A stretch of DNA of 5,039 nucleotides, taken from the IMG/VR virus record IMGVR_UViG_2778261066_000006; one strand, given 5' to 3'. Shown here piece after piece: positions 1 through 5,039 of the stretch. The notes under the pieces are model-generated. The model made no database searches. It was not told the origin of the DNA and saw nothing but the letters and a program-made list of their open reading frames with translations. Each line of letters starts with the position of its first letter. The first letter of the stretch is position 1. This stretch comes from a virus (taxonomy: Duplodnaviria; Heunggongvirae; Uroviricota; Caudoviricetes). Position numbers and translations under genes: made by a program.

Positions 1-279
1 ATGCTTCCATCGGAAACGATGATCTGGCAGCCTGAGTTCACAGATAAAACACTCTCCAGGAAACCCGGGGCGGTTCAGTTCGCCCCAAAAAAGCGAATCT
101 TTATCCGTTTTGGCAAAGGCTTTGACGAGTACCTCATCATTACCTTCTTCCCAAATTTTTTCCGCCGTTTTTTCGTCGTACCCGGCAATTTCAAAAATGG
201 CCTCGGCTATTTCTGGCGACGTATTACGCAGAGATGCCCATTCACCTACGTGATGAGCTTTCGCTTCTTGAGTTGGCAT
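1..279 (-). CDS. yccJ: YccJ-family small protein; frame stays open to the window edge
   Basis: Minus-strand translation from ATG (revcomp of 277-279) gives [67 protein letters not shown]..., matching E. coli YccJ as I recall it. It lies immediately downstream of wrbA in the same orientation, as in E. coli. No stop codon is reached before position 1, and the tail after WGE differs from the YccJ C-terminus I remember. Confidence 0.8.
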
Positions 280-299
280 GCGTATCCTCCTGTTGAAGA

Positions 300-866
300 T
301 TAGCCGTTAAGTTTGACTGCCAGACCAGCAACATATTCCCCCTGATAACGTGCGATCGACAGCTCTTCCTGGCTGGGCTGGCGTGAACCGTCACCGCCTG
401 CGATGGTGGTTGCGCCATATGGCGTTCCGCCGCGAACCTGCGAAACGTCAAATAACTCCTGGGCCGCGTAGCCAATAGGAACAATTATCATGCCGTGGTG
501 AGCAAGGGTCGTCCAGGTTGAAGTAATGGTCTGTTCCTGGCCGCCGCCGGTGCCGGTAGAGCTAAAAACGCTCGCCAGTTTGCCGTATAGCGCACCGGAA
601 GCCCACAGGCCGCCAGTCTGATCCAGGAAGGTACGCATCTGCCCTGACATATTGCCAAAGCGGGTCGGAGTACCAAAAATAATGGCATCGTAATCTGCCA
701 GTTCTTGCGGAGTTGCAACGGGGGCAGTTTGCGTTTTACCGCCTGCTTTTTCGAATAATTGCGGCTGCATGGTTTCCGGTACACGCTTAACGACAACTTC
801 CGCGCCATCAACTTTGCTTGCACCTTCAGCGACTGCGCGCGCCATCGTTTCAATATGTCCGTACAT
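300..866 (-). pseudogene. wrbA: wrbA NAD(P)H:quinone oxidoreductase (flavodoxin-like), 5'-truncated by insertion of foreign DNA; residues ~11-198 retained
   Basis: Minus-strand translation reproduces WrbA from [33 protein letters not shown]... to ...[13 protein letters not shown], with TAA stop at 300-302. The first ~10 codons (MAKVLVLYYS in E. coli WrbA as I recall it), the RBS and the promoter are absent. Sequence above 866 is AT-rich and unrelated, with an in-frame TGA at 867-869. Confidence 0.9.
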
Positions 867-3125: not shown

Positions 3126-3836
3126 TTAAAGTGTCTTGCTATACTTCTGAGAAATCTTAGTAAGCTGCTCAATATCAGCCTGCATAGCAATCTTCTTCTG
3201 CGTTTCATAGTCACTGATTAGTTGCTTCATAGCTCTAAGCTGGTTAGCAAGCTCTTGCTTAAATCTGTTTAATTTTTTGCTATGACGCTCAAGTAGATTC
3301 TTTTCAGCTAACTGACAAATCTCTTCATCTGTTTTATCAGACAGTAAAATATATGAACCTGTACCGCGTGAAGCTGGTCTAACATCAATTAAACGGAATC
3401 CTTCAGGGATGTTTTGAAGAACTTTTGAGATATTCTCTCTTGCTGTACCAAAACCATCATTATCTTCAACTGAGTAATATACGAATGGATTTTGTCTAAT
3501 TTCCACTTCAATATCAAAATCAGTTGGCTTTTCAGTCTCTTCAAAGTTCTTCACATTGTCGTAAGCGTCATCTAATCTAAGGCGCTGTGCTTTTAACTGT
3601 GGGTAATATTCACGCTCAAGATTAAATAGTGCTTCAGTTTTACCAATATCGGGCATCTCTTGAGGCTCAGGCGTCACAAAGATGATTTCCTTTGGTGACA
3701 TCTTTAGCGATTGCTCAAGCTTAATTCTTTCATCGTGTTCTTTACGCTGAATAGTGATAGCTGGATGTTCAGTCTGTGGCGACCAGTCACCGAAGCTATC
3801 AATCTTTTTACCGTTAATGTAAATATCGTTTGTCAT
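3126..3836 (-). CDS. hypothetical protein (236 aa), acidic/charged with predicted coiled-coil C-terminus
   Basis: ORF with SD AAGAGGA (revcomp of ~3844-3850) ~7 nt upstream of the ATG. Same AT-rich composition as its neighbours. First gene of an apparent 236aa-69aa-(tape measure) transcription unit. No recognisable domain. Confidence 0.7.
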   Translation of the reverse strand: MTNDIYINGKKIDSFGDWSPQTEHPAITIQRKEHDERIKLEQSLKMSPKEIIFVTPEPQEMPDIGKTEALFNLEREYYPQLKAQRLRLDDAYDNVKNFEETEKPTDFDIEVEIRQNPFVYYSVEDNDGFGTARENISKVLQNIPEGFRLIDVRPASRGTGSYILLSDKTDEEICQLAEKNLLERHSKKLNRFKQELANQLRAMKQLISDYETQKKIAMQADIEQLTKISQKYSKTL

Positions 3837-3865
3837 TGTTTTTTCCTCTTCTAAGCTAAAGTATT

Positions 3866-3951
3866 TCAGTTTTTAAAAAGCACACCTGACAGCCTACAAA
3901 CTTAGAAGAGACTTAAAAGGCGGTTTGCCAAGTATGCTTTTTAAAAACTGA
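3866..3951. repeat. Perfect 17-bp inverted repeat pair (TCAGTTTTTAAAAAGCA at 3866-3882; TGCTTTTTAAAAACTGA at 3935-3951) flanking a 52-bp spacer; candidate operator or regulatory element upstream of the 236-aa gene
   Basis: Directly read: the two arms are exact reverse complements. Each arm also contains the palindrome TTTTTAAAAA. The pair sits 30-115 bp upstream of the 236-aa ORF start. Confidence 0.5.
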
Positions 3952-3986
3952 ATAGCCCTAGATAATTTCTTATAAAGGGCTATTCA
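3949..3986 (-). terminator. Candidate intrinsic terminator (11-bp stem TGAATAGCCCT/AGGGCTATTCA, 16-nt loop) followed on the minus strand by G+UUUUU
   Basis: Perfect 11-bp stem read directly. On the minus-strand transcript the stem is followed immediately by GTTTTTAAAAAGC. Could terminate transcripts from the 107-aa gene, though it lies ~330 nt downstream of that stop. Confidence 0.4.
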
Positions 3987-4315
3987 TAAGGTGAAGAAAT
4001 TAAAAAAAACATCTGAAGGATTCAATAACGAATGAACAAGAGTACTTTTCGAGATGACCTCTCAGACTAACCTGAAAGGCCATGTAGCGAAAAGCATTGC
4101 ACCTTTCCAACTCAGAATATAGTTATCATCGATGTAGAGACGATTAATAGTTTAATTCAGGAAGAATTGCTCTCCCCTATATACAATCTTCTCATGCTTA
4201 AGGTTATTTGTCAACAGCTTTTTAACAGATTGGTAACATCAATTCTTATTTACTGTGTTACCCACCCAGCAACCAACAAATAGCCCTAGCAACGTCCAAG
4301 CAATTATTAAACCCA

Positions 4316-4639: not shown

Positions 4640-4910
4640 TTCTTAAAATCTCCTTTTTACCAGACCTCCTCAATCGCTCTGTAACGAGCTAAACAGTCTT
4701 TTTCAGGGGTAGCCTGTACAGTGGTATTACCCACCCTAAAATAAGGTAGTTTTTTGCGTTAGAATGCGATTGAGAGCGTCTGAGAAGCTGTTTTTCTAAT
4801 TTCTCTTAAAGTCTCGGACTTGCATAAGATTTTTTGGTCTGGTATCGGCTCTGTTACCATTTCGATGGATAATTTGCTTGTTGGATTGATAGCCATGATA
4901 AAGGAACCAG

Positions 4911-4933
4911 GGTGATGCTGCCAACTTACTGAT
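4911..4933 (+). repeat. IS1 left terminal inverted repeat (IRL)
   Basis: GGTGATGCTGCCAACTTACTGAT is the canonical IS1 terminal repeat. Confidence 0.85.
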
Positions 4934-4965
4934 TTAGTGTATGATGGTGTTTTTGAGGTGCTCCA

Positions 4966-5039
4966 GTGGCTTCTGTTTCTATTAGCTGTCCCTCCTGTTC
5001 AGCTACTGACGGGGTGGTGCGTAACGGCAAAAGCACCGC
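4966..5039 (+). CDS. insA: IS1 InsA (N-terminal 24 codons; partial at window edge), GTG start
   Basis: Translation from GTG at 4966 gives (M)[24 protein letters not shown], the InsA N-terminus including its CxxC motif. Confidence 0.85.
   Translation, partial: [24 protein letters not shown]

Follow-up and report, generated by a model that had tools for sequence, protein, structure and literature searches.

Positions 4796-4910 (minus strand) of the window, the 5039-bp stretch of DNA that was analyzed as a whole, almost certainly represent the 3′ third of an HNH_3-family gene that was split by the insertion sequences IS1 and ISEc12, and the longer minus-strand frame that overlaps this piece is a +1 frame that is open by chance. 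The gene, of 95 codons, belongs to a phage-derived integrative element of ~11 kb residing at wrbA, and was inactivated in this lineage by two independent transpositions that left it in three pieces. IS1 (768 bp) entered nucleotides 174-182 of the gene, with duplication of 9 bp, and ISEc12 (2581 bp) entered nucleotides 76-80, with duplication of 5 bp. Such an event is ordinary IS-mediated pseudogenization, of a kind that is already known.

The window corresponds to a whole short-read contig (PTRT01000178.1, assembly GCA_002965745.1), whose reverse complement served as locus L006. Two chromosome-scale loci, L003 (GCA_000155105.1, a 4.67-Mb scaffold) and L004 (GCA_022833075.1, 4.69 Mb), contain it with 100% identity at positions 14639..9601. 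Since a short-read contig breaks in repeats, the window holds only the last piece of the gene and the first 129 bp of IS1. Loci with the window's own context were collected by exact-protein match to the neighboring 107-aa gene, and the IS-free E. coli elements L001, L002, and L010-L014 were used for comparison. The following features were assigned.

1-77: end (77 bp) of an IS3-family element of 1310 bp that interrupts yccJ
300-866, minus strand: wrbA, first ~13 codons missing
850-2793: tape-measure gene, 3′-truncated (Pfam TMP_3)
between the tape-measure gene and the intergenic block: three small genes of 69, 236, and 107 aa, no family match
4640-4795, minus strand: intergenic block, 156 nt, between the HNH stop and the 107-aa gene
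4759-4908, minus strand: open frame of the preliminary description, 45 aa from the ATG at 4896, in the +1 frame over the HNH 3′ end plus 37 nt of intergenic sequence
4796-4910, minus strand: 3′ remnant of the HNH gene
4796-4924, minus strand: chimeric 42-aa ORF with a TTG start inside IS1 (MAASP followed by HNH residues 59-95)
4895-4924, minus strand: fusion-promoter-like site, with -35 TTGGCA in the IS1 end (4924-4919) and -10 TATCAT in the HNH remnant (4900-4895)
4902-4910: one copy of the IS1 target-site duplication, AGGAACCAG on the plus strand and CTGGTTCCT on the gene strand
4911-5039, plus strand: left end of IS1, 129 bp, terminal inverted repeat from 4911; the contig ends inside IS1

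Boundaries of the insertions and reconstruction of the gene

The IS1 boundary was placed at 4910/4911. The letters from 4911 onward read GGTGATGCTGCCAACTTACTGAT..., and insA starts with a GTG at 4966, which places the coding sequence for the InsA N-terminus within the window. When 5426 complete E. coli genomes were searched, the element-side matches all ended at window position 4910, and more than 5000 E. coli records gave a best match of at least 99% to a query that included the 4911-5039 stretch. IS1 copies are ~768 bp long, carry imperfect terminal inverted repeats of ~23 bp, and produce target duplications of 8-10 bp, typically 9 bp. The complete copy in L004 spans 8962-9729 (768 bp; window 4911-5039 is the reverse complement of L004 9601-9729), its imperfect terminal inverted repeats (GGTGATGCTGCCAACTTACTGAT / GGTAATGACTCCAACTTATTGAT) agree at 18 of the first 23 positions, and its products match the Pfam families Zn_ribbon_InsA, HTH_Tnp_IS1, and DDE_Tnp_IS1 (PF03811, PF12759, PF03400). 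The element was identified as IS1 because of its length, its terminal inverted repeats, and the InsA/InsB Pfam domains. It shares with the family the size of 768 bp, the imperfect repeats, the insA-insB′ genes, the perfect 9-bp duplication, and an AT-rich-flanked target, and this insertion shows no difference in kind.

In L003 and L004, 9 bp are repeated on both sides of the element (CTGGTTCCT-IS1-CTGGTTCCT), and a single copy is present in the IS-free L001. The junction was read directly as ctggttcct-GGTAATGACTCC...(768 bp)...GGCAGCATCACC-ctggttcct. A target duplication had been predicted in a preliminary description of this DNA, and on the plus strand exactly AGGAACCAG was found at both ends of IS1 in the two loci. 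Aligned to L003/L004, the IS-free L001 is divided into three blocks; neighboring blocks share 9 bp at IS1 and 5 bp at ISEc12. Their positions in L004 are as follows.

L004 9730-10440: block 1, on one side of IS1, containing the remnant seen in the window
L004 8855-8961: block 2, between IS1 and ISEc12
L004 5484-6273: block 3, beyond ISEc12

The remnant begins with the third base of codon 58 and continues through codons 59-95 to the TAG at 4798-4796. Its translation, WFLYHGYQSNKQIIHRNGNRADTRPKNLMQVRDFKRN followed by the stop, is identical at 37 of 37 residues to the C-terminus of the 95-aa protein of L001 and L002; in all of the IS-free relatives (L001, L002, L010-L014), this position is occupied by a 288-bp gene annotated as 'HNH endonuclease'. 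The 5′ part of the gene does lie beyond IS1, as had been expected, but it is not contiguous, for ISEc12 interrupts the gene a second time 97 bp further upstream. This element lies outside the window, measures 2581 bp, and is flanked by a 5-bp duplication, TGCTG, its junction reading tgctg-TGCGTATTACC...(2581 bp)...AAAATACGCA-tgctg. It is 100% identical over its full length to copies that PGAP calls ISEc12 (IS21 family) and carries istA (rve) and istB (IstB_IS21), thus sharing with the named element its gene pair, size, duplication length, and sequence. A protein-database entry, P0017, consists of HNH residues 1-26 running into ISEc12.

Removal of both elements, together with one copy of each duplication, restored an intact ORF of 95 codons without a frameshift (MKPWHEDVRRYFTEHLIYDESSDSLCWSDGESVTINTDDYGNKTFNIGRYTFYVKYVVWFLYHGYQSNKQIIHRNGNRADTRPKNLMQVRDFKRN, then a stop), in which window 4796-4910 was joined to L004 6194-6273 and L004 8860-8961. 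The pieces have no other lesion, and therefore the insertions are either recent or the sole damage. The reconstructed protein is the L013/L014 allele, and the DNA differs from that of L014 at one of 288 nucleotides, synonymously. Among eight alleles, 17 sites were variable, distributed 5/0/12 over the three codon positions of the HNH frame, and only three amino acid positions varied. The remnant itself is probably non-functional. These results bear out the proposal of the preliminary description that IS1 had truncated a minus-strand gene of the element: homology stops at 4910, the 9-bp duplication is present, and the gene continues beyond IS1 in its true frame.

Alternative readings of the junction and its surroundings

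The contigs that carry the exact 107-aa neighbor each have the same IS1 junction or stop at it. The junction was absent from the 5426 complete E. coli genomes, a 49-nt sequence spanning it had no exact match in the GTDB species representatives, and a protein-guided search for the locus in the same representatives returned no relatives; the insertion is lineage-specific. A window that is a complete 5039-bp contig with insertion sequences at both ends is typical of repeat-broken assemblies, and a false join of a short-read contig to a repeat would give the appearance of an insertion. The probability of such an artefact is negligible, because two independent chromosome-scale assemblies hold the same junction, the full IS1, the second copy of the duplication, and the rest of the gene, and further contigs reach or cross the junction.

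The identity of the truncated frame had to be corrected. In the preliminary description, the cut gene was taken to run on the minus strand from the IS1 boundary to a TAA at 4759-4761. That frame is open over 4759-4908 and translates as quoted, GSFIMAINPTSKLSIEMVTEPIPDQKILCKSETLREIRKTASQTLSIAF and a stop, but it is not the frame of the cut gene. The 4759-4910 interval does not divide evenly into codons, translation from 4910 meets stops, and the quoted frame begins at 4908; the gene ends at the TAG at 4796-4798, and 4759-4795 belongs to the conserved intergenic block. In the reconstructed IS-free sequence, the quoted frame extends beyond the IS1 site for four codons (NMLS) and then reaches a stop. 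When continuation beyond IS1 and duplication of the target are used to decide, the quoted frame falls, as it has no continuation, while the insertion event stands, with its duplication and its continuation in the true frame. That the frame could nevertheless be real, either as a small gene of 45-50 aa or as the C-terminus of a gene ending at 4759 and cut by IS1, is scarcely credible. It is open in the window, and in eight of eight alleles no stop interrupts it between the one lying four codons upstream of the IS1 insertion point and the shared TAA, but continued openness is expected at 97-100% nucleotide identity, and its length occurs at the chance rate: the window contains 28 open stretches of at least 50 codons, compared with 27.6 +/- 4.0 in shuffled sequences. 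Four of the variable sites fall inside the remnant, and each of them is synonymous when read in the HNH frame but non-synonymous in the quoted frame. The internal ATG at 4896 is preceded by no purine-rich Shine-Dalgarno sequence (GCAGCATCACCCTGGTTCCTTTATC-ATG), in agreement with the earlier remark that it lacks a good ribosome binding site. The 45-aa peptide, which reads MAINPTSKLSIEMVTEP..., has no Pfam or PHROG match, and its ORF is annotated in no homologous element examined. In a collection of 5.8 billion proteins, it was found elsewhere only as the tail of P0005, a frameshifted HNH variant. This reading is effectively already refuted; the frame is not a gene and encodes nothing.

A remnant that still works was also considered, either through production of the 42-aa chimera, with its H-N-N motif, or through a junction promoter that re-drives the downstream genes, and is judged improbable. 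The chimeric ORF exists and is called by annotation pipelines in L003, L004, and L006 with a weak HNH_3 match, and is identical to P0007; the public 42-aa 'HNH' ORF of the contig is this chimera of IS1 and the gene. Residues 1-58, and with them the entire beta-rich N-terminal half, are missing from it, however, and its TTG at 4924 has no Shine-Dalgarno sequence and overlaps the -35 hexamer of the promoter-like site, so that its expression appears unlikely. IS1 is documented as a source of fusion promoters in a review (PMC9330008, citing Prentki et al. 1986). The site at the junction, which scored 10/12 in a sigma-70-like consensus scan and points into the downstream genes, resembles them in having an outward -35-like hexamer in the IS1 end and a -10-like hexamer in the target, 18 nt apart. 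It differs in that it was recognized by a consensus match alone and that its 18-nt spacer lies near the upper limit of functional spacer lengths. Promoter-like sites numbered four in the 540-bp region, against 0.8 expected. Transcription would be predicted to start near 4888, downstream of both the TTG at 4924 and the ATG at 4896; thus, the transcript could not encode the chimera and could serve only the 107-aa gene and the genes beyond. The genes to be re-driven after the polar insertions would be those for the 107-aa, 236-aa, and 69-aa proteins and the tape measure. Selection to keep this module expressed is doubtful, given that the large recombinase and the Dit-like gene are lost and the tape-measure gene is truncated. 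The junction site is offered only as a lead, a putative fusion promoter.

The HNH_3 protein and its relatives

The reconstructed 95-aa protein matched Pfam HNH_3 (PF13392) over residues 53-89 with 34.3 bits (E = 1.8e-8), above the curated gathering cut-off of 24.8 bits, and also matched several PHROG families of HNH endonucleases; the remnant by itself gave only a weak HNH_3 match. NCBIfam and PADLOC gave no match for the protein, and a PDB sequence search returned chance matches to scFv chains only. A HMMER scan of 1.84 billion representatives yielded one close cluster with fragments and ~190 distant relatives, mostly of 150-360 aa. Close relatives occur only in E. coli and E. albertii, one close HNH cluster being named E. 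albertii, and a tblastn search of 50,697 phage records (E <= 1e-5) gave no match. The full-length gene was found in 226 of the 299 matching E. coli genomes.

Free-standing phage homing endonucleases of the HNH_3 type (PF13392) usually combine HNH_3 with an AP2-type DNA-binding domain (PHROG 99, 59, 959). When the protein was aligned with 16 relatives and the L015 paralogue, H73, N75/N77, the NGN turn, and N85-L86 fell in conserved columns, so that it shares with these enzymes the HNH_3 core, the histidine, the NGN, and the Asn-Leu pair. It differs from them in its length of 95 aa, in lacking the C-terminal AP2-like extension (60-100 aa in the longer relatives), and in having Ile for Asp: the consensus IDHINGN reads IIHRNGN here, with Ile72 replacing the Asp before the catalytic His, and the Asn of the 'DNR' motif is Thr81. 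Apart from HNH_3, no domain was found in the 95-aa protein when DNA-binding modules (AP2, NUMOD, IENR1, and the like) were sought. The L015 paralogue (L015 4530-4802; compare L001 6496-6783) has 90 aa, is 40% identical, and carries Phe in place of the catalytic His. An AlphaFold2 model, built from a three-sequence alignment and of low confidence, had a mean pLDDT of 56 and values below 50 over residues 65-95, too low to establish a beta-beta-alpha-metal fold. Because of the missing Asp, the missing AP2-like extension, and the Phe-for-His paralogue, the label 'endonuclease' applies by homology only, and endonuclease activity of the 95-aa protein is uncertain.

The distribution of the gene also resembles that of free-standing homing endonuclease genes: it is a small gene between conserved genes that shows polymorphism of presence, absence, and position. 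In L015, the gene is absent from the site and homology resumes 25 nt before the HNH stop; in some other related elements that lack the gene, it resumes just after the stop, and other wrbA elements have unrelated genes in the HNH position. Some elements, L015 among them, have an HNH_3 paralogue one gene further upstream; the elements are otherwise syntenic, with HNH cassettes shuffled between them. Frameshifted or truncated versions of the gene were seen in other assemblies (P0004, P0005, P0006, P0008, P0009, P0015); these are damaged at other positions, and therefore the HNH gene has been inactivated recurrently. We infer, with moderate confidence, that the intact gene is a dispensable and selfish homing-endonuclease-like cassette, often degenerating.

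The HNH gene of the window's lineage differs by one of 288 nt from that of the E. coli locus L014, but the wrbA-yccJ flank (window 75-866) is only 90.9% identical to E. coli. A near-identical gene beside such a flank suggests recent horizontal exchange of the cassette, or of the element, between Escherichia species. In view of the flank identity and of the close HNH cluster named E. albertii, the window's lineage is probably E. albertii.

The integrative element and its decay

The gene belongs to a family of integrative elements of ~10-12 kb that are integrated at four or more chromosomal locations in E. coli and E. albertii; the members compared were L001, L002, and L015-L021. The sites and the gene order are as follows.

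Integration sites: wrbA-ymdF; yciI-tonB; msyB-lpxL; near yecN
First part of the gene order: small resolvase (where present), Dam-type methylase, genes for proteins of 184, 92, and 71 aa
Second part of the gene order: HNH, 107-aa, 236-241-aa, and ~70-aa genes, tape measure, Dit-like gene, large serine recombinase

Capsid, terminase, and replication genes were not recognized in these members, and the searchable literature yielded no description of the family. The elements contain unusually long unannotated gaps of ~0.9 kb. The 236-aa protein (3126-3836, minus strand) is named 'transposase' by PGAP in E. coli relatives; it had no match in Pfam, NCBIfam, PHROGs, or PADLOC, and the name looks unsupported. 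The 63-nt inverted repeats of L001 were considered as the borders of an invertible segment for the small resolvase, and this idea was rejected, as L001, L002, L004, and L015 showed no inversion and module replacement only.

The intergenic block downstream of the HNH stop (4640-4795) is 98-99% identical in L001, L002, and L015, compared with only 78-90% for the flanking genes. High conservation also extends into the last 25 nt of the HNH gene (4640-4820, minus strand). The block folds as a long imperfect hairpin (-51.5 kcal/mol, z = -2.9), which is preceded by a small hairpin, AAGTC-CGA-GACTT, and whose arms contain inverted motifs of ~21 nt (CTYCTCA.ACGCTCT...). The IS-free elements have a second copy of the block, of 70-73% identity, upstream of the methylase (L001 9934-10054, L002 15253-15351, L015 1499-1620), and none was detected in L004. 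A structured RNA was considered for the block; RNAalifold on the two copies gave a positive, that is unfavourable, covariation term, which leaves this reading unsupported, and Rfam had no match in 4640-5039. A further strong hairpin, with 27-nt arms (TTCAGTTTTTAAAAAGCACACCTGACA and its complement), lies at 3865-4002, where 480 bp separate the 236-aa gene from the 107-aa gene, and is 93% identical in L001; Rfam returned two sub-threshold matches for it only (rhtB and MIR9563).

Relative to L002, the lineage has lost 2927 bp at a junction located at window 865/866. The deletion removed the large serine recombinase, the Dit-like gene, the 3′ end of the tape-measure gene, and the 5′ end of wrbA, and the tape-measure ORF, now fused to wrbA, runs across the junction to a stop at 850. 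L005 (99.96% identical) has the same deletion as well as the IS1 junction, and its yccJ is intact. The yccJ element, which we take to be IS629/IS1203-sized from its 1310 bp, is found in only some members of the lineage, and the intact yccJ of L005 therefore makes its insertion the most recent event. A further IS21-like element is located nearby, at L004 3531-5332. The earlier suggestion that IS1 marks decay of the element is well borne out by the second insertion sequence in the same gene, the 2.9-kb deletion, and the third insertion sequence.

Because the element is bounded by two recombinases, carries only tail genes together with a Dam-type methylase, and contains palindromic blocks, it could be a tail-hijacking phage satellite. 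A wider scenario built on this idea would make HNH_3 a mobile and catalytically degenerate cassette of such a satellite, within a possibly undescribed ~11-kb Escherichia family, and would have an IS1 fusion promoter keep the downstream module transcribed in spite of the two polar insertions; taken together, this combination is a long shot.

The split of the HNH_3 gene has little significance beyond annotation hygiene. It illustrates that a correct structural inference, here the IS1 truncation with the right duplication, can become attached to the wrong frame when the sequence alone is read. Separate study may be worthwhile for the element family, in which tail genes alone are accompanied by two serine recombinases and by HNH cassettes that have been shuffled. 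For the wrbA-integrated element, the finding means stepwise decay in one Escherichia lineage, in which two insertion sequences entered one 288-bp gene, a 2.9-kb deletion removed the integrase, and a third insertion sequence entered yccJ, leaving the element immobilized.
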